Virus record (IMG/VR): IMGVR_UViG_3300008050_000030
Length of the DNA: 64,000 nt
Reading direction: 5' to 3' (one strand)
From: a virus
In this document: positions 14,106 through 59,797 of the stretch, piece after piece
Layout of the letters: the number at the start of each line of letters is the position of its first letter
Position numbering within the stretch: position 1 is the first letter of the stretch
Program-made: the position numbers and the translations under genes
Notes under the pieces: generated by a model
The model's database searches: none
What the model was told of the DNA's origin: nothing
Seen by the model: the letters and a program-made list of their open reading frames with translations, nothing else

Positions 14106-14431
14106 CCGACTGGAATCCGAGGTACATCGCCTACTGCGACTCCCTCGGCCTGACCCCTGAGCAGGAGCGCGCCAGCGTCGCCGAGCGCTTCCAAGGCTCC
14201 ACCACGATGCACGAGTTCATCATCTGGATGAGCGCGCGTCAGCGGGAGTTCCAGAAGGATCGGGAGTGCATCGCCAACGAGGACCCCGACCAAGAACGCT
14301 TCTGCTTCCACATGCACATCGCCTGCGACCGCGGGCAAAACGACTGGACGGCTTGGCTCCAAGAGCGGGCGATCCAGCTTCGAGAGGGCAGACCATGGAC
14401 TTCAATCTCCGGCAGCACACCCACCTGCTGA
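14102..14431 (+). CDS. hypothetical protein
   Basis: GTGA overlap start; 3' end overlaps next gene by 37 nt. Confidence 0.55.
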   Translation: MTDWNPRYIAYCDSLGLTPEQERASVAERFQGSTTMHEFIIWMSARQREFQKDRECIANEDPDQERFCFHMHIACDRGQNDWTAWLQERAIQLREGRPWTSISGSTPTC

Positions 14432-15510
14432 CCGTTGCAGGTTCCCGTGCCTACGGTATTCACACCGAGACCAGCGACGTCGACATGGCCGGCGTCGCCA
14501 TCCCCCCGAAGGAGTACACCTACGGCTTCCTGAAGAAGTTCGACCAAGCCGTCGGCAAGAGCCACTTCGGCGCCTTCGCGCACAGGCTCCACCTCGATGA
14601 GGCCCGGGCCTCCGTGAACGGGCTGGAGGGGGTGATCTACGACCTCCGCAAGTTCATGAAGCTGGCGTCGGACTGCAACCCCAACATCCTGGACGTCCTG
14701 TTCTGTCGCGACGATGAGGTCCGGCTCATGACCCCCACCGGCGAGTGGCTGCGTGACCGCCGAGACTGGTTCCTCAGCCAGAAGGCCAAGCACACCTTCA
14801 GCGGGTACGCGATGAGCCAGCTCAAGCGCATCCGTGGGCACCGGAACTGGCTACTCAGCCCTCCGACGGCGCCGCCCTCCCGGAGCGACTTCGGTCTGCC
14901 CGAGCGCACCGTCATCCCTGCTGATCAGCGAGGGGCGGCGCTGTCCCTGGTGAAGAAGCGGATGGCCTCGTGGGACGTGGACCTGGAGGTCCTGGACAAG
15001 CCGGACCGGCTCGCGGTGAAGGGAGAGCTGGAGGCGATGATGGTCGAGCTGCAGCTCGCCTCAGACACGGAGCTGTGGCAGGCCGCGGCGCGCACTGTCG
15101 GGCTCAGCGACAACTTCATCGACCTGCTGGAGCGGGAGCGCGGCTACCGCGCGGCCATGGGCAACTGGAAGCAGTACCAGAACTGGAAGACCAGCCGGAA
15201 CCCGGCTCGCGCTGCCCTGGAGGAGAAGTACGGCTACGACACGAAGCACGGCGGGCACCTCGTCCGCCTCATGAACATGGGGCTCGAGCTGCTCCAGACG
15301 GGGGAGCTCAACGTCTGGCGCGGCGACATCGACGCCGAGTTCATCCTCAGCGTGCGCGCTGGGCACCTCCCCTACGACGAGCTCATCCAGTGGGCCGAGG
15401 ACCGGGAGGCGCTGATGGACGAGGCGGTGAAGACCTCCCCGCTGCCGAAGAGGCCGAACCGCAAGAAGCTGGACGAGCTCTGCGTCCAGCTGATCGAGTC
15501 GAATCTGTAG
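14395..15510 (+). CDS. Pol-beta-superfamily nucleotidyltransferase (pfam10127-like)
   Basis: GSRAYGIHTETSDVDMAGVA is the NTase G-S...D-x-D signature; GAGGG SD before ATG. Confidence 0.7.
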   Translation: MDFNLRQHTHLLTVAGSRAYGIHTETSDVDMAGVAIPPKEYTYGFLKKFDQAVGKSHFGAFAHRLHLDEARASVNGLEGVIYDLRKFMKLASDCNPNILDVLFCRDDEVRLMTPTGEWLRDRRDWFLSQKAKHTFSGYAMSQLKRIRGHRNWLLSPPTAPPSRSDFGLPERTVIPADQRGAALSLVKKRMASWDVDLEVLDKPDRLAVKGELEAMMVELQLASDTELWQAAARTVGLSDNFIDLLERERGYRAAMGNWKQYQNWKTSRNPARAALEEKYGYDTKHGGHLVRLMNMGLELLQTGELNVWRGDIDAEFILSVRAGHLPYDELIQWAEDREALMDEAVKTSPLPKRPNRKKLDELCVQLIESNL

Positions 15511-15520
15511 ACGGAGAGCA

Positions 15521-16268
15521 CATGACCGAAGATCTGGACCGCTTCACCGCGGGCACGCACCCCTTCGCCTTGGTCCGCCGGGCCCCTCCCGAGTTGTTGG
15601 GGGCCCGGCGGAGCCACGAGGACGTCGAGAAGCTGCTGATGGGGGTGACGAGCTCGGACCTGCGCTATGCCTACCAGGACCCCAACTACGCCATCGTCCG
15701 GGGCTTCTCCGAGGAGAGGCTCAAGGAGCTGGGGATCGGCTACGACCTGGACCTGGGCGGCCACGAGTGGTCGAACCCTGCTCCGGATCACCCGCTCGTC
15801 AACGACTGCTGTGCGCTGTGGGAGAGCCCGGACCTGGACTACCTCGGCCTGCAGGACGTCGCGGGGTGGGACGTCGACCTCTGCGCCTTCGCTCCGAACT
15901 CGGGGCACTTCCAAGCGACGCGGTGGCCGCCCACCATGAGGGTGGACGGGGATCCCTACGATCTGGTCGGGCAGGGGATCTACTCCGAGACCGACCACGA
16001 CTGCATCTGCCACGGCGGCCTGGAGTACTGGACCGGCGCCGCCGGCGAACCCAAGGAGCCCATCACCCTCGACCAGCTCGGCGAGTGGTCGGAGAAGGGG
16101 GCGCTGCCCCCGAACATGCTCGCCGACGCCCTTCGTTGGAAGGGCCTGGCCTACTGGAAGTGCTCCGGCAACGTCGGAGACATCCCCTACCCCCTCTGTG
16201 ATCGCTGTGAAGGCGATGGACACGTCACCTCCCCTGGAGGGGAGTGGGCGCTCTACAGGAGAACCTGA
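15521..16268 (+). CDS. hypothetical protein (249 aa)
   Basis: GTAGACGGAGAGCACATG initiation context; high GC3. Confidence 0.7.
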
Positions 16269-16798
16269 TGCAGATTCTGACCGCCCCCCTCGTGGTGGCT
16301 GACCTCGACCTCGTGCAGGTCGTCCTCTGGAAGAAGGCCGTCGACTCGGCCCTGAACAAGGTGTCCGCCGAGGACACGGAGCTGCTTTGCGGCTTGCTCG
16401 ACTTCCTCAACGCTCTGCACGACGCCCACCCGGGCCTGGAGGACACCGCTCGAGCTGCCGAAGCCCTCACCGGCGAGGAGGAGCAGGACAACCTCGCTCC
16501 CGACGCCGTCGACCCCGACTTCGACCCGATGGCCATGCGCCACTGTGCCCAGGTCGGCCCCTTCGGCACGGAGGTCCCCTCCACCACGGACTTCGGCAAG
16601 AAGTACCGGGTCGAGTACACGGCCTACGGCAAGTGGGTCTGCTCCTGCCCCAACTTCCAGCAGCGCGGGGCGGTCTGCAGCCACATCAACACGGTGCAGT
16701 CGTCGCGATGCGACTGGCACCAGCTGCTCCACGGTGACGCCGCCAAGGCCCCCGACTACAAGTGCCCCAAGTGCGGCGGGCCGACCAGCGAGGTGTGA
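16268..16798 (+). CDS. SWIM zinc-finger protein
   Basis: CSCPNFQQRGAVCSHI fits the SWIM C-x-C-xn-C-x-H motif; AGGAGAACCTGATG context. Confidence 0.7.
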   Translation: MQILTAPLVVADLDLVQVVLWKKAVDSALNKVSAEDTELLCGLLDFLNALHDAHPGLEDTARAAEALTGEEEQDNLAPDAVDPDFDPMAMRHCAQVGPFGTEVPSTTDFGKKYRVEYTAYGKWVCSCPNFQQRGAVCSHINTVQSSRCDWHQLLHGDAAKAPDYKCPKCGGPTSEV

Positions 16799-16799
16799 G

Positions 16800-17759
16800 A
16801 TGCAGACCGACGACGAGCTGTACGCGAGCCTTGTGCTCCCCTGGGAGGCCGACAACGCCTCCTCCATCAACATCCAGGGCGCCGACGACCTCGACGCGGC
16901 GCTGACGATGGCGGACCTGGACTGGACCGCGGCGAGCCGCCCGCTCCTGTTCCGGGATCCCGACGACGAGACCAACCTGATCGAGGTGGAGACCCACAAG
17001 GCGGTGGTGCGGGAGGACACGCTGGACCAGATCGGCGTGGTCGGTGTCACCTACGAGATCGTGCAGAACCGAGAGGCTCTGTCCCTGCTCCGCGGCATCG
17101 CCGGCCGGGGCAAGGACCTCACCTTCGTCCGAGGAGGCACCTTCAAGGAGGGCCGGGTCGTCTGGGTGATGCTCAGCATCGACGACTTCCTCATCGAGCC
17201 GGTGCCGGGAGACGTGCTCATCCCCTACATCCTCATCTCGAACAGCCACAACGGCAGTCAGGGGGTGCGAGCCACGTTCTCGGCCCACCGACACGCCGGG
17301 CTGAGCGTGCACAACGTCGGTCGGGGGCTGAGTTTCCGGCACACGAGGCACGTGGTCGATCGGATGGAGCGCGGGGAGAGCGTCCTGGCCGCCGGGCTGG
17401 ACTCCTTCGAGCGGTTCCACGACTTCGCCCTCGACCTGGCGCAGCAACCGATGCCGCAGGAGGACTGGGAGGCCTTCCTGGACGCCTTCATCCCGCCCCC
17501 GGAGGAGGGAGTCCGCCCTGGGCGCCGCAACAAGGCCAGGGCGACGCTCACGCGCCTCTTCGAGTCCGGGCCGGGCACGGACATCCCGGGTGTCAAGAAG
17601 ACGCGCTGGGCGGCGCTCAACGCCGTCTCGCTGTGGCAGACGCACTTCGCCTCGTCCAAGGACGGGGAGAAGGCCCTGAACTCGCTCTGGTTCCAGAGCG
17701 GGGCGTCCAAGCTGGACGTGGCGGCAGGCCTGCTGAGGAAGCTGCACGCGGTGCGGTGA
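16800..17759 (+). CDS. DUF932-like phage/plasmid-associated protein
   Basis: ILISNSHNGSQGVRATFSAHR resembles the DUF932 core; last gene of the + block. Confidence 0.65.
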   Translation: MQTDDELYASLVLPWEADNASSINIQGADDLDAALTMADLDWTAASRPLLFRDPDDETNLIEVETHKAVVREDTLDQIGVVGVTYEIVQNREALSLLRGIAGRGKDLTFVRGGTFKEGRVVWVMLSIDDFLIEPVPGDVLIPYILISNSHNGSQGVRATFSAHRHAGLSVHNVGRGLSFRHTRHVVDRMERGESVLAAGLDSFERFHDFALDLAQQPMPQEDWEAFLDAFIPPPEEGVRPGRRNKARATLTRLFESGPGTDIPGVKKTRWAALNAVSLWQTHFASSKDGEKALNSLWFQSGASKLDVAAGLLRKLHAVR

Positions 17760-17770
17760 TCAGAGCTAAG

Positions 17771-17805: not shown

Positions 17806-17868
17806 AAAGGGAGTTTGTCTACGGACGAGATCGGCGTCCCTTATGAAAGGGTCGGGGCCGATCCTTTC

Positions 17869-18525: not shown

Positions 18526-18531
18526 GATCGA

Positions 18532-29852: not shown

Positions 29853-29965
29853 GATCTTCTCCGGGGAAGGGGTTCACACCTCTTATCCCCCCATACCAAC
29901 TGGAAGTTGTCAGCTAAGCAGGAGCGAGGGGGGACCCTCGCTGCGACTGCTTTCGGCCCGCCCCC

Positions 29966-30285
29966 CTAGAAGGGGGACAGGTCTTCCAGCCCGGTTCCGA
30001 ACCGGGCCCGGACTGCGTCCCACACGCGGCACGCCGCGTAGTACGGCAGCCCAATGGGTGCCGTCACCACCAGCAGGGCGGCCATGCCCGCGCGCTGCCA
30101 GCCCGACTCCGACGAGTCGGAGGCGAACCCGACCCCGGTCCCGTACAGGGACCCGAGCATCCTCGTCACCGTGACGGTGATGAAGGAGGCGGCGGCGAGA
30201 GCCAGCGGCCGGAGCGCTGCCGTGAGGCAGCGGGTCAGCAGGGTGGCGATGAACTTGGCGAGGAACTTGGCGATGGTCTTCATAT
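29966..30285 (-). CDS. small membrane protein (MKTIA-family paralog)
   Basis: MKTIAKFLAKFIATLL; CCCTGGAGTTCGATATG context. Confidence 0.6.
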
Positions 30286-30563
30286 CGAACTCCAGGGAAC
30301 GAAGACGGCAGGGGCGCGAGAAAACCTCGCAAAGCCTCCTGTTGGTGACACTTCTCTTATCCCCGAAACACCCCCTTTTTCTGCACTTTGCAGCTGCCCT
30401 CACGCCTCCCCATCGAGCGGGTAAGTGTGCCCCTCGGCCCCGGTCAAGGGGCGCGTTTGACGGGCGGGCCGCCCGAGCTATTGCTCCCAGAGTCAGCCAG
30501 GGGTTATTGCCCCTGACCTGTCGCGCGGGGATCGAACCCGCCTCCCTTCACACCTGTCGTCAG

Positions 30564-31151
30564 CTACCCAGCCGGACTCGAACCGGCCCTTTCCTGGATC
30601 GTCTGCTCTCGGTACCAGCACCAGTAGGTCTCGGTGTGGTGCCGCCGCCATGGGTTGTGCCCTTCCGGCTTCGGCACCAAGTCCCAGGCGACCCCGCGGC
30701 TGTGGGTGCGCCGAGGCCGCTGCTTGCAGCCGGGGTCGGGGTCGTGGATGCCCCAGTACTCCGACTTCAGCGCGTAGCAGTAGACGCGGCCCCTCCCTCG
30801 GCCCCAGCGGATGGCCTGATCGATCTCCCAGGGCAGGTCCGCCTCGGCGATCTCAGGCAGGTACCCGTGCTCCTCCACCAGCCGAGTGAGCATCCTCTGG
30901 CCCAGCGCCCTCCTCTCTGCCTTCGTCATCGGGATGAGCGGAGGCCGGGAGGGGAACTTGGGGAGCTCGCCCTCCCAGAGCCGCTTGCAGTCCCCGCAGA
31001 CGTCCTCGGCGAAGATGGACTCGAGCGGGCGCTCGACAGGGTCCTTGGGCAGCGCGTTGTGGTCGACGCCGGCGATGTGCGCCTTGCCTGTGTTCCACGG
31101 GTCCTTCAGGCCGAGCTGGTACTCGGTACGCCGGGCCTGGATGAACCTCAT
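30564..31151 (-). CDS. Cys/His-rich hypothetical protein, possibly HNH-like
   Basis: CGDC...CYALKSEYWGIHDPDPGC...H..H; preceded by a 12-codon uORF. Confidence 0.6.
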   Translation of the reverse strand: MRFIQARRTEYQLGLKDPWNTGKAHIAGVDHNALPKDPVERPLESIFAEDVCGDCKRLWEGELPKFPSRPPLIPMTKAERRALGQRMLTRLVEEHGYLPEIAEADLPWEIDQAIRWGRGRGRVYCYALKSEYWGIHDPDPGCKQRPRRTHSRGVAWDLVPKPEGHNPWRRHHTETYWCWYREQTIQERAGSSPAG

Positions 31152-31990: not shown

Positions 31991-32061
31991 ATCAGCGAGG
32001 GGGACTCGAACCCCCAACATCTCCTTTGCGCGGGAGGGCTCTACCATTGAGCTATCTCTGA
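31991..32061 (-). tRNA. tRNA-like gene with defective anticodon arm
   Basis: Canonical D-arm TAGCTCAATGGTAGAGC and T-arm GGGGGTTCGAGTCCCCC; acceptor stem with one A-G mismatch; anticodon arm is only CTCC/GGAG with an 8-nt loop lacking U33; no encoded CCA. Confidence 0.5.
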
Positions 32062-32097
32062 CACTCTTCTTATCCCCTCAACAACTCCCAGTTGACG

Positions 32098-34562: not shown

Positions 34563-35012
34563 TCAGCCCCTATCCCAAGGAGGCACGGGGTTGCCGGCTC
34601 CCCAGGGGTGCTCCCACCTGGACCGCATGCGGCGAATCGCGTCCAGAGGGACCCCATGGCTGTTCCGCTTGAACAGCTGCTCGTCGGTGAGCCCTCCGTC
34701 GAAGAGGTCGACGATGAAGGTCTTCAGGCGGAGAGGGGAGTCGGAGAGCTGGAGGTAGGGCTCCAGCTCCCACCGAGTGCTGAAGGTGTTGGCCACCGCG
34801 GTGATGGGCTGCCCGGCCAGGACCGACTCCTGGGCGCCCTTGATGCACTGGGCGTGGGCCTGCGCCAGCTCCTGCGGCTTGAAGGTGTACGTGCCGTCCT
34901 CCGCGGTGAAGTAGTCGTCGGCCGAGAAGATGGCGGCGTCGAGGAGGTGAGCGAAGGAGGTCTTCCCCGAGCCGGGGAGGCCTCGAACGAGAATCAAGAT
35001 CTGGTCAGTCAT
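34563..35012 (-). CDS. P-loop kinase (AAA_33 / polynucleotide-kinase-like)
   Basis: ILVRGLPGSGKTSFAHLL Walker A near N-terminus; about 150 aa; ATGA-coupled. Confidence 0.7.
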   Translation of the reverse strand: MTDQILILVRGLPGSGKTSFAHLLDAAIFSADDYFTAEDGTYTFKPQELAQAHAQCIKGAQESVLAGQPITAVANTFSTRWELEPYLQLSDSPLRLKTFIVDLFDGGLTDEQLFKRNSHGVPLDAIRRMRSRWEHPWGAGNPVPPWDRG

Positions 35013-35134
35013 CCGAGCACCAGGGCGAGGAGAGCCAGCACCCCGAGGAGGGAGAGCCAGGGGAGGGAGACGATGAGCACGATGAAGAGCACCGTGTTGC
35101 GGGCGACGCGGCGGAGGTAGCGGAGGAGGCGCAT
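35009..35134 (-). CDS. possible 41-aa membrane peptide
   Basis: MRLLRYLRRVARNTVLFIVLIVSLPWLSLLGVLALLALVLG; weak RBS. Confidence 0.3.
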   Translation of the reverse strand: MRLLRYLRRVARNTVLFIVLIVSLPWLSLLGVLALLALVLG

Positions 35135-35142
35135 GGGTTGTC

Positions 35143-35778
35143 TCAGAGGACCGAGACGCCGCACAGCTCCCAGAGAGGCTGCGTGGTGATGTCGAGGACA
35201 TCGACGAGGCGGGCCAGCGCAGTGGCGCTGAGCTCGCGGACGTTCCAGTTCAGGGACACCTGGGTCTCCATCTCTCCGTGCCGCGGCCCGTTCACCCAGG
35301 ACTCCTCGGGGATGGGCCCGGGGCCGCGGTGGGTCGAGGAGCGGTCCAGGTGCGGGCGCTCGTCCATGTTGGTGAGTCGGCAGCCCTCGGACGCGGCCAG
35401 CTCCCGAATCTGCTTCCAGGTCTCGGCCTCGGCATCGAAGGCGATGAACTCCGTGGACAGGTCGATCATCTCCTTCTTCTCGGTCCACAGCCCGTAGACG
35501 CGCCAGCGCGACCGGCGGGCGACGACGTCCTGGAGCGGGCGGACGCGGGCCAGGAAGGCGCGCTCGCCGTCGGAGAGGTGCAGGAACTCCTCGGTCTGGT
35601 AGTGGAGGCGGATGGCCTCTCGCCACGCCGGAGAGTCGAGGCCGGCAGGTTGCTCGGGCGGCCACGTCAGGTTGGCGGCCTTGGCCAAGTCGGGCAGGTG
35701 GCAGGTGGAGACGTCGCGGAGGTACTCACCGTGGCGGTGAATCTCCCCGATGCTGTTGATGTGGAGACCGATCTGCAT
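35143..35778 (-). CDS. hypothetical protein (211 aa)
   Basis: High GC3; preceded by a 200-bp lower-GC leader carrying the TATACCTGCGAGAT box. Confidence 0.7.
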   Translation of the reverse strand: MQIGLHINSIGEIHRHGEYLRDVSTCHLPDLAKAANLTWPPEQPAGLDSPAWREAIRLHYQTEEFLHLSDGERAFLARVRPLQDVVARRSRWRVYGLWTEKKEMIDLSTEFIAFDAEAETWKQIRELAASEGCRLTNMDERPHLDRSSTHRGPGPIPEESWVNGPRHGEMETQVSLNWNVRELSATALARLVDVLDITTQPLWELCGVSVL

Positions 35779-35983
35779 TCATGTCCCTCGGTAAGCATTG
35801 TGGAGGTCGGGCCGACGATCGCATCGGAAAGTCTGTTGTGTCTTGTGCACGTCCGTCCTCTAGCAACCTCCTTATACCTGCGAGATCACAGCACTTTCAG
35901 GGCTAAAGATGCGGTCCTTTCGGTCCTAGATCGAGGTCACGACTCCTCTTGAAGTGATCACCTGTGGTTTTGATCTACTCTAT

Positions 35984-36166
35984 TTATGCCTCCAGGCGCC
36001 CGCGGATTTCACTCCGCAGGCGCCCATCAGCACGTTCTCTCAGCCGCCCCGTCAGGACGTAGATGACCTCGCCGATCGGGCGGGCGACGAGGTTGTGGGC
36101 GGTCCACTGCAGCCGGCGGGGAAGCCGGTCGAGCAGCGGGGCGAAGAAGCCAGTCTTCTGTTCCAT
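35984..36166 (-). CDS. hypothetical small protein
   Basis: CCTGGAGATCTGATG context; its stop lies inside a motif copy GGCATAAATAGAGTAGATC. Confidence 0.45.
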   Translation of the reverse strand: MEQKTGFFAPLLDRLPRRLQWTAHNLVARPIGEVIYVLTGRLRERADGRLRSEIRGRLEA

Positions 36167-37588: not shown

Positions 37589-38059
37589 TTAGAGGGAGAC
37601 GGTCTCGCCCAGCTCGGTGCCGGGCTCGAACGCTGGGCCCACCGAGCTGAACGGGCTGCCGTCCTTGTTGACGAGGCTCAGGTGGAAGACCCGCCCCTCG
37701 TCGATCACGGGGATGCCCATGGCCCCCAGCAGGCGCATGCGCCAGCTGTGCCAGAGGGGCTGGTCCTGGAGCCTGCAGGCCCAGGACCATCGACCCGACT
37801 CCAGTTGCTGGAGCTGGGCCGAGAGCTCGATGCTCGCCCTCGGCGGGGCGGGCAACTCGTCCTCTCGTCCCACCCACGACTTGAGGATGTCGCGGTGGGG
37901 CTTGAGGCTCCCGAAGCTGCACACCGTGACGTGCAGCTTCCCGGCCGGGAGGGGAACACCTTCCTGGTCGGTGATGATCGCCTGCTGGAGGCGCGAGGCC
38001 TCCGCCAAGGCACCGACCCCTACGCCGACACCGATGAAGGTCTTGGAGATGCGCAGCAT
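37589..38059 (-). CDS. 2H phosphoesterase (LigT/CPDase-like)
   Basis: Two H-x-T/S-x motifs (LHVTVCSF and VFHLSLVN); AAGGAGG SD; TGATG-coupled. Confidence 0.7.
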   Translation of the reverse strand: MLRISKTFIGVGVGVGALAEASRLQQAIITDQEGVPLPAGKLHVTVCSFGSLKPHRDILKSWVGREDELPAPPRASIELSAQLQQLESGRWSWACRLQDQPLWHSWRMRLLGAMGIPVIDEGRVFHLSLVNKDGSPFSSVGPAFEPGTELGETVSL

Positions 38060-38358
38060 CACGCCTCCTTCTTCGGTGCGGGCTTGGGGTTGGCGGCCAG
38101 GTGCGCCTGGTGGCGCAGGTGCGCGTCCACGCCCTGGGCGTGCTCCTCCGCCTCCGTCTTGTTGTAGAAGATCTCCCCCGTCAGGGGGTCCTCGTAGGAG
38201 GCCGCCATCTGGGTCTGGCGGCGGAGGGAGGCACCCAGGCTGTCGGTCCAGGAGGCCCGCTTCTCGCGGGCCTCCCGGCTGAAGAAGACCTTGTAGATGA
38301 TGCCGGCGCAGGCGGAGTAGACGGCCACGATGAGCAGCCGGAGAGCGAGTTTCTTCAT
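38059..38358 (-). CDS. small membrane protein (MKK-family paralog)
   Basis: MKKLALRLLIVAVYSACAG; cassette GGGATAAGAGGAGTACACCCCCTACCTGGAGATCTCATG. Confidence 0.6.
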   Translation of the reverse strand: MKKLALRLLIVAVYSACAGIIYKVFFSREAREKRASWTDSLGASLRRQTQMAASYEDPLTGEIFYNKTEAEEHAQGVDAHLRHQAHLAANPKPAPKKEA

Positions 38359-38396
38359 GAGATCTCCAGGTAGGGGGTGTACTCCTCTTATCCCTG
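38359..38396 (-). promoter_or_regulatory. start-associated cassette
   Basis: GGGATAAGAGGAGTACACCCCCTACCTGGAGATCTCATG. Confidence 0.6.
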
Positions 38397-38399: not shown

Positions 38400-38879
38400 T
38401 CAGGGGCAGTTCTCGTTCACGAACTCACGAGCTTCATCGGGCCGCAACTCGGCCCCGAAGTAGTCCTCCCGGGCGAAGGTCGTCTCCACGAGATCGTGTC
38501 CGTGGCGCCCCCAGCTGTGGGATCGCCAGACCCCGTCGTCGAGGCAGTATCCGGTGATGAGGACGAGCCTCTCGTCGAGAAGCCACTCGTGGGAGATGTT
38601 GGAGTGGCAGCGTCCGGCCTCCCCCTCCCGGAGCTGGATCTTCTCCGGGCGGTAGGGCTGGCCGCGCTCGAGGAGGATCTTCAGATGCTCCTCGATGCCG
38701 TTGACGCAGATCTCTTCCCCTCCCTCAGCGAGGAGCACCTCCCGCAGTCTTGCCAGCGCCGGCTGCACGCGTAGGGCGCTCTCGTACCTCGATCTCAGGA
38801 AGGTCAGTTGTCGTGGGGTCATCAGGCAGTCGTTGCTGAAGGAGTCGTTGAGCGCGCTTCGGCTCGGTTCCGAAGGCAC
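38400..38879 (-). CDS. hypothetical protein (GTG 38879 or ATG about 38822)
   Basis: Strong GC3; +1 frame relative to the 3' tail of the sigma factor ORF. Confidence 0.55.
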   Translation of the reverse strand: MPSEPSRSALNDSFSNDCLMTPRQLTFLRSRYESALRVQPALARLREVLLAEGGEEICVNGIEEHLKILLERGQPYRPEKIQLREGEAGRCHSNISHEWLLDERLVLITGYCLDDGVWRSHSWGRHGHDLVETTFAREDYFGAELRPDEAREFVNENCP

Positions 38880-39816
38880 CGCGCACTGCGCCGGCGGAGA
38901 CGCCGGGAGGGAGCACGGTCTCGGTCAAGATCTCGTAGGACTCCGCCATCCCGGCCAGAGAGCCTTCCAGCTCTCGGACACGGGCGCGCAGAGCCGCCAC
39001 GGTGTACAGGTCGTCCTCGGTCATTCCCTCCGCCATCTCGGCCATCTTCTTCATGGCCCGCAGCTCAAGTTGTCGTACACGTTCGCGAGTCAGGCCCATG
39101 TCGGTCCCGACCATCTCCAGGGAGTCGCCTTCCTTCACGAGCGAGGGGTGGCCGCCAGGAAGCATCCTTCGCCGAAGGATGATGTACCGCTCTCTCGCCG
39201 GAAGAGCCCCCAGGAGCATGCGGACGACCAGTTCTCGTCGAGAGGCTCGCCACTGGATGTCGTAGGCGTCCTCGGGGGTGTGTCGGTCGATGAACAGCTG
39301 GTGAGGAGGGCGGTCCTCGTCCCCCAGATCTTCTCGCTGCTCCCACCGCAGAACGGCCTGGAGCCGGATGAGGTCCTCCACGGGGCGGCCCACATCCTTG
39401 GACAGGCTCTCCATGAACTTGTCGTCTCCCAGGGTCTCCGAGACGGAGTTCCCGGTCTTCATCATGTGCCGGGTGATGCGAACCAAGGCCGCTTGTGCCC
39501 AGGAGGAGCGAGTGGCCTTGAACTGGTCCTTTTCGAGGCGGCGGTAGCGCTGGAGAAACGCCTTGATCCAGTGGTAGCAGTAGGTGGACAGGCGGGCCTT
39601 CTCGGGGTCGTACTTCAGCACGGCTCGGTGGAACCCCATGGCGACCTCCTGGAAGGCGTCATCCGGGTCCAGACCCTTGCCGTGCGTGTGCACCATCTTC
39701 CAGAACAACTGCACGTACGAGCGCGTGAGCGTGTTCATGGCGTTCGAGTCCCCCGCCTGTGCAGCGCGAGCAAGCCGGTCCTGCTCCTCTGCCGGGAAGG
39801 GAGGTAAGGGGGTCAT
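38725..39816 (-). CDS. RNA polymerase sigma factor, sigma-70 family
   Basis: Region 2 (STYCYHWIKAFLQRY) and region 4 (GLTRERVRQLELRAMKKMAE); GCTGGAGGTGCCGATG context; coding GC3 fades after about 38880. Confidence 0.8.
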   Translation of the reverse strand: MTPLPPFPAEEQDRLARAAQAGDSNAMNTLTRSYVQLFWKMVHTHGKGLDPDDAFQEVAMGFHRAVLKYDPEKARLSTYCYHWIKAFLQRYRRLEKDQFKATRSSWAQAALVRITRHMMKTGNSVSETLGDDKFMESLSKDVGRPVEDLIRLQAVLRWEQREDLGDEDRPPHQLFIDRHTPEDAYDIQWRASRRELVVRMLLGALPARERYIILRRRMLPGGHPSLVKEGDSLEMVGTDMGLTRERVRQLELRAMKKMAEMAEGMTEDDLYTVAALRARVRELEGSLAGMAESYEILTETVLPPGVSAGAVRGAFGTEPKRAQRLLQQRLPDDPTTTDLPEIEVRERPTRAAGAGKTAGGAPR

Positions 39817-39830
39817 CGGCACCTCCAGCG

Positions 39831-48294: not shown

Positions 48295-48530
48295 ACGACT
48301 ACCGCAACCTCGCGGCAGCTGTGAACGAGGCCGAGGGACGACTGAACGACAGGGACCTGCGCGGGAACACCGTGGAGCTGCCTCCTCTCCAGTACGAGCT
48401 CGCCAAGTCCGAGGGAGACATGCTCCTGGGCCTGCGGGTGAAGCGCGGAGAGGCCGCTCGGGTGGTGACGCACGAGCGGTTCGGTCCCCAGCACGAGTCG
48501 ATCACCCTGCCGGAGCCCGCCGCACGATGA
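48291..48530 (+). CDS. hypothetical protein (79 aa)
   Basis: ATGA overlap. Confidence 0.6.
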   Translation: MNDYRNLAAAVNEAEGRLNDRDLRGNTVELPPLQYELAKSEGDMLLGLRVKRGEAARVVTHERFGPQHESITLPEPAAR

Positions 48531-49468
48531 CGATCTACCTACAGCGCGGCGACAAGGGCGCCCGTGGCGACGGCGCGAAGGGCGACTGGATCGTCTCCTG
48601 GCAGGCTTTCCTCGCCGGCGAAGGCCACTACGAGGGGGACTACAGCCCGCATTTCGGGCCCAAGACCCAAGCGGCCACCGAGTCGTTTCAGTCGGCTCAC
48701 ACCTTGATGATGGATGGGATCGTCGGGGACGGGGTCACCGCCACTGCGCGAGGGAGGGGCCTCAACCCTCCGTGGTCGCCGAACAAGAACGACACGACGA
48801 TCGAGCAGCTCGACGATGAGGACGAGGGGTACATGGACCCCGACTGGCCTCAGCCGGCAGACCTGGACGGCGACGGCCGCGCGGACCTGGTCTACCTCAA
48901 GGAGGCCGAACGCCAGAAGCTCTGGGGCCCACTCAAGTTCAAGGTGGTGGACGGCAAGCCGAAGCTGACCAACGACTGGTACAGCAAGTACATCCGCCGC
49001 GTGTTCGTGCCGCAGCTCAAGGGCGTCGACTGCTACGGCAGTCCCAGCAGCGGGAACGTGCTCTTCCACAAGCTCGCGATCCCGCAGCTGCTCGGCGCCC
49101 TCCAGGAGTGCGAGGACGAGGGGCTCATCGGCGACATCGAGTCGTTCGGCGGGACCTACGTGATGCGCTTCATCCGCGGGTCGACGAAGACGCTCTCGAA
49201 CCACGCGTTCGGAGTCGCCCCCGACTTCAACATGAAGGAGAACGGGCTCGGCAAGCAGCCGGCGCTCGTCGGCGAGAAGGGCACCCTGCGCCGCATCGTC
49301 AAGATCTTCGAGAGGTGGGGCTTCTTCTGGGGCGGCTGGTACCGCAACCGCAAGGACGGCATGCACTTCGAGTGCGTGAAGCTCATCCCGACGAACGAAC
49401 TCTGCGACATGGTCGCGCAGCTCAGCACGGTCGACCACATCCTCCCCTGGCTGAAGGACGTGGCATGA
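48527..49468 (+). CDS. endolysin: peptidoglycan-binding domain + M15 peptidase (L-Ala-D-Glu peptidase-like)
   Basis: PG_binding_1-like N-terminus (FGPKTQAATESFQSAHTLMMDGIVG); M15 motifs SNHAFGVAPD and DGMHFE. Confidence 0.85.
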   Translation: MTIYLQRGDKGARGDGAKGDWIVSWQAFLAGEGHYEGDYSPHFGPKTQAATESFQSAHTLMMDGIVGDGVTATARGRGLNPPWSPNKNDTTIEQLDDEDEGYMDPDWPQPADLDGDGRADLVYLKEAERQKLWGPLKFKVVDGKPKLTNDWYSKYIRRVFVPQLKGVDCYGSPSSGNVLFHKLAIPQLLGALQECEDEGLIGDIESFGGTYVMRFIRGSTKTLSNHAFGVAPDFNMKENGLGKQPALVGEKGTLRRIVKIFERWGFFWGGWYRNRKDGMHFECVKLIPTNELCDMVAQLSTVDHILPWLKDVA

Positions 49469-51822: not shown

Positions 51823-52323
51823 GTGGCGGGGTATTGGGCAACTCGGCAGGAGAGCCGGTACTACCGCGCCGTCCTCCGGCTGGCCAAGAAGTACGCGGCG
51901 TCGGCGCAGAGCATGCTCGATGTCGGCACCGGGCCATGTCCCTACCCCGAGTGGTTCACCTGGATCCCTCGCAAGGTTCTCGTGGACAAGCGAGAGGGGC
52001 CTGCGGCACCCGGGACTGAGCGCATCTGCGCCGACTTCATGACGCTCGATATGGACGAGGCCTTCGACTTGGTCACCTGCCTGCAGGTGCTGGAGCACCT
52101 GCCTGACCCGGAGAAGATGGCGGCCCGGCTGCTGAAGCAAGGCAAAGCGGTGATCGTGTCGGTGCCGTACATGTGGCCCAAGGAGGCCTGCAGGTTCCAT
52201 GTCCAGGACCCGGTCAGCGAGAAGAAGCTCCTCTCGTGGTTCGGGGTGCCGGCGACCGAGACCTTGAAGGTGACCGAGCCAGGCACCAACGTCACCCGGC
52301 TGATCGCGGTCTTCGTTCTGTGA
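51823..52323 (+). CDS. class I SAM-dependent methyltransferase
   Basis: Motif I MLDVGTGPCP; post-I acidic LDMDEAFDLVTCLQVLEHL. Confidence 0.7.
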   Translation: MAGYWATRQESRYYRAVLRLAKKYAASAQSMLDVGTGPCPYPEWFTWIPRKVLVDKREGPAAPGTERICADFMTLDMDEAFDLVTCLQVLEHLPDPEKMAARLLKQGKAVIVSVPYMWPKEACRFHVQDPVSEKKLLSWFGVPATETLKVTEPGTNVTRLIAVFVL

Positions 52324-53051
52324 TCCGTCACCGCCAGCCCTCCTTCTCCGTGGGCTTGGCCGTGCGGGGTCGCGAGCCGGAGCGCCTGGCCAGGTGCCTG
52401 GCCAGCCTGCAGGCGCAGGAGAAGCGCCCGGTGCAGGTGGCTGTCGTGGAGATGCCTCTCGGAGGGGTTGTTCGGCACCGCCGGACCTGCCAGGAGTATG
52501 GGGCCAGGCACTTGGTCGTGGACCAGGTCGAGGGCCTCTTCCCTCTGGCCAGGTTGGCCAACATCGCGGCCAGGCAGCTCGTGGGCACGGCGACCCACTT
52601 CGTCAAGACCGACGTGGACGCCGTCTTCCTGCCCTCCGTGCTCCAGAGGCTGTCGTGGCGTCTGGAGGAAGGCCCCACCGACCTACTCAGCCTCCGCCCC
52701 CGCAGGCTCCCTGCGCACTACCTGTACCCTCGCCCGGGCCCAGTCAGGTGGGCCCGGGACGGCGTGATGGAGCCCGGGGACGAGAAGATGTGGGGCCTGT
52801 GCATGGTCCACGACTTCGACTCTTTCGGGGAGCTTCGCGGATTCGATGAGTCATTCGTGGGCTGGGGAGGAGAGGATCGGAACTACGTGCACCGCGCACA
52901 GCAGATCGGGAGGTGCACGGAGATGTTGGAGTGGGGCTCCCTGCTGCTGCACCAGTGGCATACTGTGGAGGAGGGCTCCAGGGTGAACGAGACCAAGCAC
53001 AAGGAGTGGCGCAAGAGGAAGCAGCGCAATGGGCCGGGGTGGGGTCGATGA
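52320..53051 (+). CDS. family 2 glycosyltransferase
   Basis: FSVGLAV...LARCLASLQAQ N-terminus; FVGWGGEDRNYVHRAQQIG C-terminus. Confidence 0.7.
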   Translation: MIRHRQPSFSVGLAVRGREPERLARCLASLQAQEKRPVQVAVVEMPLGGVVRHRRTCQEYGARHLVVDQVEGLFPLARLANIAARQLVGTATHFVKTDVDAVFLPSVLQRLSWRLEEGPTDLLSLRPRRLPAHYLYPRPGPVRWARDGVMEPGDEKMWGLCMVHDFDSFGELRGFDESFVGWGGEDRNYVHRAQQIGRCTEMLEWGSLLLHQWHTVEEGSRVNETKHKEWRKRKQRNGPGWGR

Positions 53052-53893
53052 TTCCCCCCACCAGAAAGGGCCGTCCGGGGGACCGGGCGCAGCCTCCGAA
53101 GCTGCCAGTGAAGATGCCGAAGGACCCGAAGTTCCGGCTGAGCGCGGTCATCCCTCTGCGGGACCGCCCGGCTAAGCACCTCGATGCGGCCTTGGGGTTC
53201 CTGGCAGCGCAGCGCCTGCCCATGGAAGAGGTCATCGTGGTGGACCAAGCCAGCCGGGCCAAGTTCCGGCAACGGTACGCGAAGGTCTGCGCCCGGCGAG
53301 GAAGTCGGAACTTCCCGGTGCGGCATGTGCTGCGCTCGGGCCCACCCAAGTGGAACAAGCCGATGGCGGCGAACTTCGGCATCCGCTCCACGTCGGAGAA
53401 GGCGACTCATGTCCTCAGCATGGACTGCGACATGCTGTTTGCTCCCCACGCGGCGGAGACCTTCCGCAGCCTGTCTCTGGGGAGCGAAACGGATCTTCTC
53501 GTGATCGGGCACCGGCACGACCTGGTGGACCCGGACCGAGTGCTGAAGCAAGCAGCACCCTGGAGCACCCTGGAACGCGCATCGAGGCTCACGGACCGCG
53601 TGGCGCACCCGTGGCACTTCGCGTCGAGGGAGTGGTTCTTCAAGATCCGCGGGTACGATGAGCGGATGTGGGGCAGGGGCGCCATGGATACGGACCTCTC
53701 CGCTCGAGCGGAGAGAGACAACGATGTCACTGTGGTGAGGCTCCGGGAGCAGCAGATCCTGGCGGTACATTACAGCCACGGCAGGCCGCCGTGGGAGCAA
53801 ACACGCAAGAAGCCCGAGACGATCCTGAACCGCCGCCTGAGGAACACCGACGAGTCGATCGTGCGCAACGACGAGACGTGGGGGACGACGTGA
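53048..53893 (+). CDS. family 2 glycosyltransferase (second copy)
   Basis: LSAVIPLRDRPAKHLDAALGFLAAQ; RGYDERMWGRGAMDTDL. Confidence 0.7.
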   Translation: MIPPTRKGRPGDRAQPPKLPVKMPKDPKFRLSAVIPLRDRPAKHLDAALGFLAAQRLPMEEVIVVDQASRAKFRQRYAKVCARRGSRNFPVRHVLRSGPPKWNKPMAANFGIRSTSEKATHVLSMDCDMLFAPHAAETFRSLSLGSETDLLVIGHRHDLVDPDRVLKQAAPWSTLERASRLTDRVAHPWHFASREWFFKIRGYDERMWGRGAMDTDLSARAERDNDVTVVRLREQQILAVHYSHGRPPWEQTRKKPETILNRRLRNTDESIVRNDETWGTT

Positions 53894-55224: not shown

Positions 55225-55227
55225 GTG

Positions 55228-56540: not shown

Positions 56541-56701
56541 GAAGTGGGGCAAAAGCAGGTGCGCGGTCTCTTCATGTTCAGAGGGAACACTCACCAGACC
56601 GCGCGGCCAAGGCCGGGGACCTGCCCCCTGCGGGGGGTCGGCGCCAACCAACCCGCGCGCCTTGACCGCCACCCTTATACCCCGGATCAGCGGAGTTTGC
56701 C

Positions 56702-56935: not shown

Positions 56936-57408
56936 TGGCCAAGGAACCGAAGACGAAGAAGGACCTGATCGCGAGGCTGAAGAAGGAGCTGCACACGTAC
57001 ATCGAGCAGCGGCTCGATGCCTTCCGCAACGCGGTCAACGAGGCCACCGAGGTCAACATGCAGCGCGTGGGTGGGTGGCTCAACCACACCTCCTACGCCC
57101 TCGACTTCCAGGTCGACCGTGTCTCGGCGCTGATCGAGCTGACCACGACCAAGCTCGGCATCGCACCGGAGGAGTTCGAGGCCGAGGTCAAGCGGCAGCG
57201 CGAGCTGCGCCTGGCACGGGTCGAGGAGGTCCGGCAGCAGCAGAAGGCGGCGCAGGAGGCGGCCAAGGAGGCCGCGGAAGCTCCGCCCGAGGAGGAGGCC
57301 GAGCGGCCTCCGACCGAAGAGGAGGTCCTCCTGGCTGCCTCTTCGGAGAAGTTCACGACCGGCCCCGAGGGGGATCATCCTCCCGAGGCGCAGATCTTCG
57401 GAGGCTGA
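56935..57408 (+). CDS. Ala/Glu-rich coiled-coil protein
   Basis: TGATG overlap. Confidence 0.65.
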   Translation: MAKEPKTKKDLIARLKKELHTYIEQRLDAFRNAVNEATEVNMQRVGGWLNHTSYALDFQVDRVSALIELTTTKLGIAPEEFEAEVKRQRELRLARVEEVRQQQKAAQEAAKEAAEAPPEEEAERPPTEEEVLLAASSEKFTTGPEGDHPPEAQIFGG

Positions 57409-57409
57409 G

Positions 57410-57586
57410 ATGGCGAAGCAGAAGACCCAGGTGCGCGGCGTCGAGGTGAAGACCCAGGTGCGCCAAGCCCCCAAGAAGGGGCTCAACAACCTCCGCTGTG
57501 GCTGCGGCGGGGTGCTGCAGCGTGACGGCAAGGGCGCGATGAGGTGCACCAAGTGCCGCACCTCCAAGGTGGAGACCCCTCTGTAG
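57410..57586 (+). CDS. zinc-ribbon peptide (58 aa)
   Basis: GGAGGCTGAGATG; CGCGG...CTKC. Confidence 0.5.
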   Translation: MAKQKTQVRGVEVKTQVRQAPKKGLNNLRCGCGGVLQRDGKGAMRCTKCRTSKVETPL

Positions 57587-57694
57587 ACTGCGGCGGTGTC
57601 GAATCGCCCCCGCCCTGCCCTCGTGTCGTTGATGTGGGTGGCTGCCGCGGTGGGGATGGCGATCGGGGTGCTCCTCCCGACATGCTGAGCTAAG

Positions 57695-57720
57695 AGGAGG
57701 GGCGCCGCGGCGCCCCTCCC
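57695..57720. terminator. GC hairpin between convergent blocks
   Basis: GGAGGGGCGCC-GCG-GCGCCCCTCC preceded by GCTAAG. Confidence 0.6.
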
Positions 57721-57721
57721 G

Positions 57722-58159
57722 TCACCGGCGTTTCCTTCGTCGTCGGCGGGGTTTCTCCTCGGGCGTGACGCCCTTCTCCAGGACCAGCAGCCTCAACAGG
57801 CGCTGGCAGTCCTTCACGCCGAAGCGCGCGATGTGTGCGTCCTCCTTGGTCAGTCCCATGGCGTCCTGCATCCAGCGGTACGCAGCCCCGCGGCTGTAGT
57901 CCCCCGTCTTCCAGAGCTGATCGAAGGCGGAGTGCGCCTTGTTCCTCCAGTGCTTGTCGGCCTGCTGGATGGGAATCCCCAGCGGGACGCCGTCGGGGTG
58001 AGCTCCGATGCCACCGAGGCAGTCGAAGCGCCCGTAGTGCTCGCAGCGGTAGTGGAGCCCGTACATGGATTTGCGCAGCTTGAGCTGCCCCGAGCACTCG
58101 GGCTCGGGGCAGCTCAGAGGGTGCTCCCAGTACGGGACGCCGTCGATCTCAACCAGCAC
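57722..58159 (-). CDS. Cys/His-rich hypothetical protein
   Basis: CPEPEC...CEHYGRFDC; basic tail RRRRRKRR. Confidence 0.65.
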   Translation of the reverse strand: MLVEIDGVPYWEHPLSCPEPECSGQLKLRKSMYGLHYRCEHYGRFDCLGGIGAHPDGVPLGIPIQQADKHWRNKAHSAFDQLWKTGDYSRGAAYRWMQDAMGLTKEDAHIARFGVKDCQRLLRLLVLEKGVTPEEKPRRRRRKRR

Positions 58160-58321
58160 GTCGGGCCTCGGAGACCCTCTTGATCGTCTCGAACTCCTCT
58201 CGGGACACCAGCTGCCGCTCCGCCACGGTCAGGTGGGAGTACTCCCACTTGATGTCCTTGAAGTAGTAGTGGCTGAGCTTCAGCAGCGCGATCAGCGCGG
58301 CCTTCTCGTCGTCGGTCATGG
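58149..58321 (-). CDS. hypothetical small protein
   Basis: AAGGA SD; ATGA-coupled to the ligase. Confidence 0.5.
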
Positions 58322-59797
58322 CAGTCCTTGGAGCTTCGAGTTGACGCACTCCTCCACTTCCTTGTCGTCGCGGAAGGCGACGATGCGGGGGTGGATCATG
58401 GCGTTGGTCTTGCCCCCCTCGGAGACGTAGAAGCGCGTGGAGTACTCCACGCGCACGACCAGGGGGTAGAGGTCAGGGTCGGCCAGGTTGGCTTTGTTCT
58501 CCTTCGTCAGGCCGCCTCCGCAGTCGCAGAGGTAGATCAGGTCGCCATCGTCGGTGAGCTGGTGCAGCGCCACGCTGCCCACCTGCCCCTGGTACTTCCC
58601 CGTGCCCCAGGTGCCGAGGCCCTGGTCCGGCTCCCAGTAGGCGATGCAGTCGTCCTCGTAGACCGGCTTGAGCTTCCCAGTGAACTTGCCCGGCCGGTCC
58701 GGCTTGCCGCGGAAGTTGTAGGCCCGATCGCCGAAGACGCCCTTGGGGTCGACGACCACCCAGCCCTCCCAGCCGTTGTACTGCGCGAGGGCTCGGGCGA
58801 TCTGGTCGAGGTGGACCACCACCTCCTCCTTGCCCCCGCCCTCCATGAGGACGGCCGTCGGGAAGAGGGACCGTCGCTTGGAGTAGCGGAGCTCGCGCCC
58901 CTCCTGACCGGCGGCCCAGATCACCGCGCGGATGCCCTCCTCCCAGACCTGCTTGGGGGTGAGGGTCTGCAGAGGGAGCAGCCACTGCGCGTCCTTGGTG
59001 AGCTCCTCGATGGTCCCCATGCGCTCCGAGAAGGTGCGCGTGGTCCCCACCATCTCCCCGTCCCACGCCCCGATGTCCCAGACGTACATCGAGAGCCAGG
59101 GGTTGCCTCCGGACTGCTGGAGCTGGAGCGCCTTGTTGGTGTAGGACTTGGTGACCTGCTGGACGAAGGCGAAGTCGTCCTTGCCTCCTCGGTCGGCGAC
59201 GAGCTCCCCCAGCAGGATGGAGTTCGGAGGGATGACGCCCTCCCGCAGCATCACGAGGACCTCCTCGTAGAGCATGGGGAAGCGCTCGGCCCAGAGGCGG
59301 TAGCTCTCCCCCTCCGCCTCTCGGTCATGGGTGGGCCGCATCCGACGGCTGTAGATCTCCACGTCGTCGTCGGTGGTGCGGATGACGTGCATCATCCCCT
59401 CGCGCTTCCGCCCGAAGAGCACGCCCTTGCCCAGCAGCACCTTCTTGAGGAGCGTGGCGGACAGCGTGTTGTCCGGCTTGTAGAAGCAGAGGGAGAGCGG
59501 CAACTGCTCGTCGGGGAGCAGGGCGATGGGGGCCGCGTCCTCGCCGTCCTCGAGGTACCCCTTGTACACCTGCAGCATGATCTTTCGGGCGGCCCGGTCC
59601 AGGGCGTAGTCCTCGGCGTCGATCTCGTTGGACTTGCCCACGTTGATGGCGCTGTAGGTGTGGGAGGTCTCCTGCATGGCGCCCCCGAGGACGCCGTGGG
59701 TGGTGGTTTCGGTCGCGCCGTCGACGCGGATGGTCCAGGCCAGCGTGTGCTTGCGGCCCTTCTGTCGGAACTCGCGGGTCTCACCCGTCCAGGCCAT
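58316..59797 (-). CDS. ATP-dependent DNA (or RNA) ligase
   Basis: Motif I KREGMMHVIR...IYSRR; III LLGELV; IV EGWVVVDPKG; V GKLKPV; VI HPRIVAFRDDKEVEE. Confidence 0.75.
   Translation of the reverse strand: MAWTGETREFRQKGRKHTLAWTIRVDGATETTTHGVLGGAMQETSHTYSAINVGKSNEIDAEDYALDRAARKIMLQVYKGYLEDGEDAAPIALLPDEQLPLSLCFYKPDNTLSATLLKKVLLGKGVLFGRKREGMMHVIRTTDDDVEIYSRRMRPTHDREAEGESYRLWAERFPMLYEEVLVMLREGVIPPNSILLGELVADRGGKDDFAFVQQVTKSYTNKALQLQQSGGNPWLSMYVWDIGAWDGEMVGTTRTFSERMGTIEELTKDAQWLLPLQTLTPKQVWEEGIRAVIWAAGQEGRELRYSKRRSLFPTAVLMEGGGKEEVVVHLDQIARALAQYNGWEGWVVVDPKGVFGDRAYNFRGKPDRPGKFTGKLKPVYEDDCIAYWEPDQGLGTWGTGKYQGQVGSVALHQLTDDGDLIYLCDCGGGLTKENKANLADPDLYPLVVRVEYSTRFYVSEGGKTNAMIHPRIVAFRDDKEVEECVNSKLQGLP

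Follow-up and report, generated by a model that had tools for sequence, protein, structure and literature searches.

Jumbo phages carry RNA ligases, polynucleotide kinases, 2H and other phosphoesterases, RlaP nucleotidyltransferases, KTSC domains and tRNAs dispersed over their genomes, and these complements have been interpreted as counter-measures to host attack on tRNA and the machinery of translation (Iyer et al., 2021; PMC7824862, section 3.4.9). KTSC is a predicted RNA-binding domain (PMC7824862), and purified bacterial members of the RlaP family extend the 3'-OH of damaged RNA, not of DNA, by 1-2 nucleotides (nt) in vitro (PMC12776372). Here we describe genes of this kind in the virus record IMGVR_UViG_3300008050_000030 of IMG/VR, from which a stretch of 64,000 nt (hereafter the window) was analysed. 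According to exact-protein look-ups, the window corresponds to positions 19,896-83,895 of the 188,377-bp metagenomic contig k141_382418 (ENA ERZ27249009). Together with 10 kb on each flank, 84 kb of the 188-kb contig were inspected.

An earlier reading of this DNA from its letters alone (the sequence-only reading) had described a fused enzyme and five further genes as a distributed toolkit for the repair of RNA breaks with 2',3'-cyclic phosphate and 5'-OH ends, kept under pressure from a host RNA-cleaving defence. The genes in question are the following:

4784-6991, + strand: fused enzyme with a LigD-type 3'-phosphoesterase, an ATP-dependent ligase (KADG) plus OB domain, a P-loop (GAGKST) module and KTSC
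14395-15510, + strand: RlaP-family Pol-beta nucleotidyltransferase (Pfam PF10127, phrog_388)
31991-32061, - strand: tRNA-like small RNA (Rfam tRNA) with its own promoter motif at 32069-32076
34563-35012, - strand: stand-alone P-loop kinase, homologue of the T4 polynucleotide kinase domain, without a phosphatase domain
37589-38059, - strand: divergent 2H phosphoesterase (H43-V-T-V, H126-L-S-L)
58316-59797, - strand: ATP-dependent DNA-ligase-type enzyme (nucleotidyltransferase (NTase) and OB domains, motifs I-VI) with a WGR-like N-terminal domain, hereafter ligase 2

The five further genes are all present at these positions, and the four protein-coding open reading frames (ORFs) among them (RlaP, kinase, 2H and ligase 2) are real genes, with a third-position GC of 0.89-0.95 compared with a background of 0.66. 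We posit, with moderate confidence, that the listed genes do not make up one system and instead belong to two layers, namely inherited ligases and acquired accessory genes. We infer every enzymatic step and substrate discussed below from homology, fold, motifs, gene order and distribution.

The two ligases and the search for an RNA ligase

Ligase 2 displays motifs I, III, IIIa, IV, V and VI of ATP-dependent ligases (K131-R-E-G, LLGELV, YVWDIGAWDG, EGWVVVD, GKLKP and RIVAFRDDK), and the key residues of these motifs are invariant in 30 homologues. Motif I reads KREG in the window and KR[D/N]G in the family. The presence of a second ATP-dependent ligase with conserved motifs I-VI, as recognized by the sequence-only reading, is thereby upheld. 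The protein itself scores 22.9 bits with DNA_ligase_A_M (gathering threshold 26.2) and matches phrog_114 at 7.6e-13, while 26 of the 30 homologues match DNA_ligase_A_M and 12 match DNA_ligase_A_C. Searched against the PDB, the family profile finds ATP-dependent DNA ligases only (E 3e-12), and the matches extend across both the NTase and the OB domain with its motif VI. Full-length homologues number at least 211, on contigs of 90-200 kb, and the family is absent from GTDB species representatives and GenBank phages. Contigs whose ligases share 80%, 54%, 43% and 38% identity with ligase 2 have the gene at a constant locus, which adjoins a divergently transcribed block of very large structural proteins, with rIIA/rIIB-like or RNR genes as neighbours in relatives. 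The first 100 residues show a W...G...YGxLGGxMQ...K..GY pattern, their profile matches the N-terminus of PDB 2ra8 (E 0.0022), and four homologues are labelled 'predicted DNA-binding WGR domain protein' by JGI. Judged from these sequence features, ligase 2 is most readily understood as a DNA nick-sealing enzyme belonging to the lineage itself. Between motifs IIIa and IV, it shares with its closest relatives an insertion of about 50 residues (residues ~283-335) that is missing from most of the family.

The fused enzyme matches Pfam LigD_N (1.1e-12), DNA_ligase_OB_2 and KTSC (2.4e-16) as well as PDB entries 3p4h (2e-14) and 7x8c (1.3e-10), and its phosphoesterase domain (TIGR02777, 3.9e-15) retains the H-x-H...H-F-D-L-R-L motif. 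Its phosphoesterase-ligase core of about 470 amino acids (aa) has 283 homologues, on contigs of up to 215 kb, with C-terminal additions that vary between phages (SNF2 helicase, Nudix or AAA_33); only the four closest of these homologues have the kinase-KTSC tail. In two distant relatives, the core gene is surrounded by genes for RNase HII, terminase, ThyX, Dam, EndoVII and dCTP deaminase. In the stretch 4784-5018 (+ strand), the public gene call (P0128, 657 aa) does not match the ORF of the fused enzyme, as it begins within the LigD phosphoesterase domain. Since the ORF starting from GTG 4784 contains the catalytic HDAHRAGRHFDLRL motif, the database protein P0128 is probably truncated at its N-terminus.

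Neither Rnl1, Rnl2 nor RtcB was found in Pfam scans of the 104 window genes or in the Pfam annotations of the 10-kb flanks, and phmmer searches with T4 Rnl1 and two Pseudomonas-phage RNA ligases, a test of low sensitivity, gave no match. When a hidden RNA ligase was looked for, neither PHROG nor Pfam gave matches for the ORFans beside the kinase, RlaP and the fused enzyme, and no ligase motifs were seen by eye in the genes following RlaP and the fused enzyme. The sequence-only reading had enlisted the ligases for RNA repair, while allowing that they might prove to be DNA-replication ligases with no RNA activity; as far as sequence analysis goes, both are of DNA type. They have the appearance of DNA-metabolism genes handed down within a group of 160-215 kb phages, given that their families are widespread, that they match DNA ligases and that their neighbours in relatives belong to DNA metabolism.

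RlaP, kinase, 2H protein and tRNA-like RNA

The gene at 14395-15510 does encode a Pol-beta nucleotidyltransferase, as it matches the RlaP family PF10127 with 58.9 bits (E 8.3e-16, cut-off 23) and phrog_388 at 7e-60. Its sequence bears the Pol-beta G-S...D-x-D motif (VAGSRAYG...SDVDMAGV). The family counts 783 phage records, the top one being 46% identical and located on a 485-kb uncultured phage (tblastn). RlaP sits together with the fused enzyme in a long, dense array of + strand genes (3.9-17.8 kb). The family owes its name to genes that adjoin an RNA ligase gene. In the window, the neighbours of RlaP are GIY-YIG, PAPS-reductase-like, Cys-rich ORFan, SWIM and DUF932 genes with no RNA ligase alongside, and the closest ligase gene of any kind, that of the fused enzyme, is 7.4 kb upstream within the array. 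The GIY-YIG homing-endonuclease-like gene (3.6e-14) abuts the PAPS-reductase-like gene (phrog_424, 4.3e-16) at 12067-13592 (+ strand). PAPS-reductase-like enzymes are frequently linked to DNA modification.

The stand-alone kinase is 149 aa long and matches AAA_33 marginally (1.9e-6; 28.7 bits against 27) and phrog_2071 at 1.6e-22. In the PDB, its family profile matches the kinase domains of Clostridium Pnkp (CthPnkp), of T4 Pnk, of Pnkp1 and of mammalian PNKP, and also the tRNA kinase PSTK. Aligned with T4 PseT (97.4% probability, E 1.5e-11, hhalign), the P-loop, the catalytic Asp and the RN..VP lid coincide, with GLPGSGKTS, SADDYF and KRNSHGVP pairing with GCPGSGKST, NRDDYR and KRNSKRGTKAVP of T4; the second lid Arg of T4 is replaced by His in the family. 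We therefore consider the earlier label 'PNK-like' well founded on sequence grounds despite the missing phosphatase domain. No 3'-phosphatase is fused or adjacent to the kinase, and its neighbour genes lack family matches in Pfam and PHROG. Paralogy of the stand-alone kinase with the P-loop module of the fused enzyme was rejected, as the two share no BLASTP similarity. The family comprises 7720 clusters of proteins of about 130-170 aa, mostly annotated 'ATPase'. Two genera of Pseudomonas phages, represented by NoPa and M5.1, have a homologue next to or near an RNA ligase gene: in NoPa it directly follows the ligase gene, and in M5.1 it is one gene away. A few genes upstream there are two phosphoesterase genes.

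2H enzymes are the classical openers of 2',3'-cyclic phosphates. In the 2H protein of the window, H43-V-T-V and H126-L-S-L (H-x-T/S-x motifs about 80 residues apart) are invariant in all seven homologues, and the two His residues align with H44/H113 of T4 Acb1 and with H43/H125 of ThpR. The predicted structure confirms a bilobed alpha+beta 2H fold, so that the two HxT/SxH motifs pointed out by the sequence-only reading are not fortuitous. The protein has no sequence-family match in Pfam, PHROGs, NCBIfam or the PDB, even with a family profile; only seven clusters of relatives were found among 5.8 billion proteins, and no further ones in IMG/VR. Acb1 is among the small viral 2H proteins and degrades immune signals instead of healing RNA. 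Its structural score against the window protein is nearly as good as that of LigT, and the 2H profile places it slightly ahead of Escherichia coli ThpR (E 0.0011 versus 0.05, hhalign), both with low probabilities. Foldseek against BFVD and hhalign against T4 Acb1 and E. coli ThpR thus do not separate a LigT-like from an Acb1-like protein, and a role in degrading immune signals, as in Acb1, is just as possible for the 2H protein.

A tRNA-like gene exists at 31991-32061, as had been noticed, in that the full Rfam tRNA model is covered with 45.4 bits (threshold 29) and the minimum free energy fold is a cloverleaf with D and T arms. It does not have the normal anticodon loop of a tRNA, however: the loop in this position is 8 nt (CGCGCAAA) and not 7 nt long and lacks U33, and ARAGORN assigns it a 4-base anticodon. 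The relative (L001:15725-15785) carries a GCAA tetraloop in the anticodon-loop position together with a compensatory change in the T stem. The promoter motif ends 7 nt ahead of the 5' end of the RNA, and the palindrome of the next cassette follows directly past its 3' end. No more copies were found in IMG/VR, and JGI metagenomes yielded only the known relative. From these features we read the gene product as a conserved structured RNA and not a decoding tRNA. Without a functional anticodon loop it is not an obvious target of anticodon nucleases or a replacement tRNA, and roles as a decoy, processing signal or cofactor are possibilities. Two further ARAGORN predictions, a tRNA-Pro(CGG) at 29953-30029 (- strand) and a 95-nt tRNA-Thr(GGT) at 30563-30657 (- strand), were rejected, as both overlap high-GC3 ORFs and have no Rfam match at E <= 1.

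Promoter motif, gene linkage and genomic setting

The sequence-only reading had suggested co-regulation of the repair genes by a shared class of cassette promoter. A promoter-like motif, GGGATAAG, indeed occurs 21 times compared with 0.4 expected, always on the - strand. Twenty copies lie within 18.5-42.4 kb (18515-42423) and the remaining one at 63449-63456. Many copies have a TTAGCgtCAACTnnnAGTTG palindrome in front of them and, behind them, a conserved leader (agaccaccaacccctGGAGa) ending in GGAG, and the start codon comes after about 30 nt. The motif stands before the 2H operon, the tRNA-like RNA and about 20 mostly ORFan cassettes, and is absent ahead of RlaP, the fused enzyme and ligase 2. 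Being common to about 20 unrelated cassettes, it marks membership of the block and not a repair regulon, and the suggested co-regulation is not borne out. GGGATAAG probably marks phage-specific promoters of small, mostly ORFan cassettes, and its reader is probably a phage sigma factor. A sigma-70 family protein encoded inside the block and a second sigma gene (region 3) just outside the right end of the window (L004:1-438) are candidate readers.

The six genes, at 4.8, 14.4, 32.0, 34.6, 37.6 and 58.3 kb, are spread over about 55 kb on both strands in separate transcription units. In a relative with about 60% protein identity, of which 20 kb were fetched, the 2H gene and three of its neighbours are retained; the kinase and the two genes that precede it in its unit have no homologue in these 20 kb.

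Further features of the window are as follows:

35009-35778, - strand: two ORFans of 211 aa and 41 aa that precede the kinase in its transcription unit; stop and start codons overlap
35871-35878, - strand: one-mismatch promoter variant GGTATAAG ahead of the kinase unit (position-weight-matrix score 18.7)
38059-38358, - strand: 99-aa protein with a hydrophobic N-terminus as judged from its sequence, translationally coupled to the 2H gene (GTGATG overlap)
38387-38394, - strand: copy of the promoter-like motif GGGATAAG, 28 nt ahead of the 2H operon
38725-39822, - strand: sigma-70 family protein (regions 2 and 4) inside the cassette block
48527-49468, + strand: endolysin-like protein (PG_binding_1 and Peptidase_M15_4)
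51823-53893, + strand: cluster of one methyltransferase and two glycosyltransferases
57722-58319, - strand: 56-aa ORF and DUF3268 zinc-finger protein (3.7e-21), downstream of ligase 2
59781-60404, - strand: 207-aa acidic ORFan whose end overlaps the start of ligase 2
60489-63092, - strand: 867-aa homologue of eukaryotic major vault protein (MVP; MVP_shoulder 2.6e-25, Vault_3 4.7e-10)

The kinase is the final gene of its three-gene unit (35778->34563), in which the two leading ORFans have no Pfam or PHROG match. An ORF of about 60 aa (~35985-36165, - strand) that was missed by the gene caller lies behind another one-mismatch variant, TGGATAAG, and a GGAG leader, and a weaker variant, GGCATAAA, is present at 35983-35990. 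The 99-aa protein coupled to the 2H gene likewise has no family match. The proteins flanking ligase 2 may be its partners; a close relative encodes a protein of comparable size (221 aa) in the position of the 207-aa ORFan.

The MVP gene has the same orientation as ligase 2 and lies two genes upstream of it. It is absent from the equivalent locus in relatives with 80% and 54% identical ligases and is thus a recent insertion, and a functional tie with ligase 2 was rejected on the same grounds. Its sole phage relatives are found in three huge uncultured phages (462-735 kb, 38% identity), and viral MVPs have been the subject of one report, from gut phages (bioRxiv 10.1101/2023.11.10.566534).

With a G+C content of 66% and about 104 mostly short genes of very strong third-position GC, the window has no nucleotide-level relative among 50,697 GenBank phages (megablast of 20 kb), and the element was therefore placed through its proteins. 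Pfam identifies few of these, among them DUF932, GIY-YIG, sigma-70, endolysin, glycosyl- and methyltransferases, Cpn10 and the MVP homologue; the Cpn10/GroES-like match falls within 44-57 kb. Past the right end of the window, two proteins of 1103 aa and 1105 aa are encoded, the latter with a phage-lysozyme domain. More distant contigs that carry both ligase families also encode terminase, rIIA/rIIB-like proteins, RNR and a fused RNA polymerase beta-beta'. We conclude that the element is a large uncultured tailed phage. An attempt to infer its host found no relatives of the ligase 2 family or of the MVP gene among GTDB species representatives.

Interpretation and comparison with known systems

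According to the two-layer reading, the two DNA-ligase-type enzymes would have been inherited with the phage lineage. The WGR-like/NTase/OB ligase most likely seals DNA nicks during replication and recombination, and the LigD-like phosphoesterase-ligase may clean 3'-phosphate or 3'-ribonucleotide ends before sealing, having gained its P-loop kinase and KTSC tail in the clade of the window phage. RlaP, the kinase and the 2H protein would have been acquired independently, each in its own transcription unit. RlaP might add back 1-2 nt to the 3' ends of damaged RNA, the stand-alone kinase would act as a Pnk-type 5'-OH kinase, and the 2H protein may either open RNA 2',3'-cyclic phosphates or degrade cyclic-nucleotide immune signals. 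It is plausible that such accessory genes blunt abortive-infection defences in which the host relies on RNases or on signals, an idea put forward for other large phages. Should any resealing of cleaved RNA take place, the fused enzyme is the best candidate on account of its kinase and its predicted RNA-binding KTSC tail; otherwise, a host ligase or a gene outside the window might serve, and the WGR ligase probably would not.

Several points weigh against this reading. A kinase and KTSC fused to the phosphoesterase-ligase suggest RNA handling, so that the boundary between the layers may be artificial, and either of the two ligases may serve replication. DNA-ligase-family enzymes can seal RNA-containing nicks, and a 'DNA-type' assignment hence does not exclude work on RNA. 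Pfam WGR was undetected in the 30 homologues of ligase 2, which makes the WGR assignment a weak one. The structure and profile comparisons of the 2H protein fit LigT-like and Acb1-like enzymes alike, and an RNA ligase, Tpt1 or another phosphatase may sit in the remaining ~104 kb of the contig.

What remains of the proposed RNA end-healing toolkit are its domains, which hold up; its ligases are of DNA type, no RNA ligase was detected and specific co-regulation is lacking. A single distributed RNA-repair pathway including both ligases and selected by a host RNA-cleaving defence, in which the 2H protein would open 2',3'-cyclic phosphates, the phosphoesterase remove the phosphate, the kinase phosphorylate the 5'-OH, RlaP restore nucleotides and either ligase seal, appears improbable to us. 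Every activity it needs is represented by a confirmed domain, and 2H, P-loop kinase and ATP-dependent ligase are also the modules of the fungal and plant tRNA ligase. Moreover, KTSC is predicted to bind RNA (PMC7824862), and RlaP (PMC12776372) and the kinase family are tied to RNA ligases elsewhere. However, ligase 2 is a conserved gene of DNA-ligase type with a fixed locus and a WGR-like domain, the phosphoesterase-ligase core is surrounded by DNA-metabolism genes in relatives, and neither Rnl nor RtcB was detected in the window and its 10-kb flanks. The genes are not specifically co-regulated, a relative lacks a kinase homologue near its 2H gene in the 20 kb fetched, and NTase-OB ligases require a duplex nick, unlike a cut anticodon loop. 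The opposite view, that the kit serves DNA ends, seems to us equally doubtful. Pnk-like kinases, the LigD phosphoesterase and the two ligases would then fix DNA nicks or breaks with 3'-phosphate and 5'-OH ends or with embedded ribonucleotides, in parallel to eukaryotic single-strand-break repair with its WGR nick sensor, PNKP and ligase. RlaP, the 2H protein and the tRNA-like RNA would have no part in it and count as unrelated passengers. This would suit the DNA type of both ligases, the WGR-like N-terminus of ligase 2 and the RNase HII and Endo VII genes near the phosphoesterase-ligase in relatives; LigD phosphoesterase works on DNA primer ends, and the T4 and mammalian PNK kinases phosphorylate DNA too. 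On the other hand, homologues of the stand-alone kinase adjoin RNA ligases and not DNA ligases, 2',3'-cyclic phosphates are confined to RNA, the KTSC tail points to RNA, and RlaP acts on RNA only (PMC12776372).

The suggested pressure from a host RNA-cleaving defence remains plausible in view of the biochemistry of RlaP, the kinase-RNA ligase neighbourhood and the jumbo-phage parallels, and is weakened by the anticodon-less tRNA-like RNA and a possibly Acb1-like 2H protein. The latter would also fit an account, unlikely in our estimate, in which the superfamily labels coincide by chance: the 2H protein would be an Acb1- or ns2-like destroyer of cyclic-oligonucleotide or 2'-5' signals, the kinase and RlaP would serve other ends, and there would be no end-healing pathway. 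We regard as highly speculative the idea that the phage repairs RNA without a canonical RNA ligase from parts of the DNA-ligase family. Here, the phosphoesterase/ligase/kinase/KTSC chain would heal and seal tRNA breaks with the help of the stand-alone kinase, RlaP and the new 2H protein, making up a counterpart in a bacterial virus to the Trl1 pathway of eukaryotes, with the tRNA-like RNA as a decoy or cofactor.

Defence-driven toolkits in large phages are already established, and the overall picture will not surprise a specialist. Three features of the window phage are unusual: no RNA ligase was recognisable, its 2H family is very rare, and its kinase comes without a phosphatase. The unclassified 2H family is one of the modest new items, and gene context supports the identity of a Pnk-type polynucleotide kinase for a family of 7720 clusters mostly labelled 'ATPase'. 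If the accessory genes of our two-layer reading counter host RNases, they would represent another case of a T4-type arms race, from an uncultured high-GC lineage, and such kits could then be assembled without a recognisable RNA ligase. As a caution, a count of 'ligase' domains overstates the capacity for RNA repair.

The module types of the window, ATP-dependent ligase, P-loop 5'-kinase and 2H, are also those of Trl1, the fungal and plant tRNA ligase. In contrast to Trl1, they reside on separate polypeptides and transcription units, the ligase modules have OB domains and motif VI like DNA ligases, and no Tpt1/KptA for the removal of the 2'-phosphate was seen in the window phage. With bacterial LigD, the fused enzyme shares a phosphoesterase followed by an ATP-dependent ligase, whereas it has no polymerase/primase domain, contains the small viral OB domain (DNA_ligase_OB_2) and carries the extra P-loop kinase and KTSC; no Ku was seen. 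The 2H protein resembles the anti-CBASS protein Acb1 of phages in fold, in its size of about 150 aa, in its two H-x-T/S motifs and in its location in a variable accessory region.

The sets of jumbo phages (Iyer, Anantharaman, Krishnan, Burroughs & Aravind 2021, Viruses 13:63) centre on Rnl1, Rnl2 or RtcB and PNK-HAD phosphatases, with RlaP tracking those ligases (PMC7824862). Unlike these, the window phage has DNA-type ligases only, with no RNA ligase found, a phosphatase-less kinase and a tiny unclassified 2H family; it is alike in its dispersed RlaP, kinase, 2H, KTSC and tRNA-like genes. In T4, PseT (Pnkp) and Rnl1 repair PrrC-cleaved tRNA-Lys. In comparison, the window kinase lacks a fused HAD 3'-phosphatase, no Rnl1 was found, and the genes are not adjacent, while pseT and rnlA are only about 1.4 kb apart. 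The kinase is nevertheless homologous to the kinase domain of PseT, and T4 likewise encodes an RlaP member (NrdC.11; PMC12776372), a small 2H protein (57B/Acb1) and the tRNA-like stable RNAs rnaC and rnaD.

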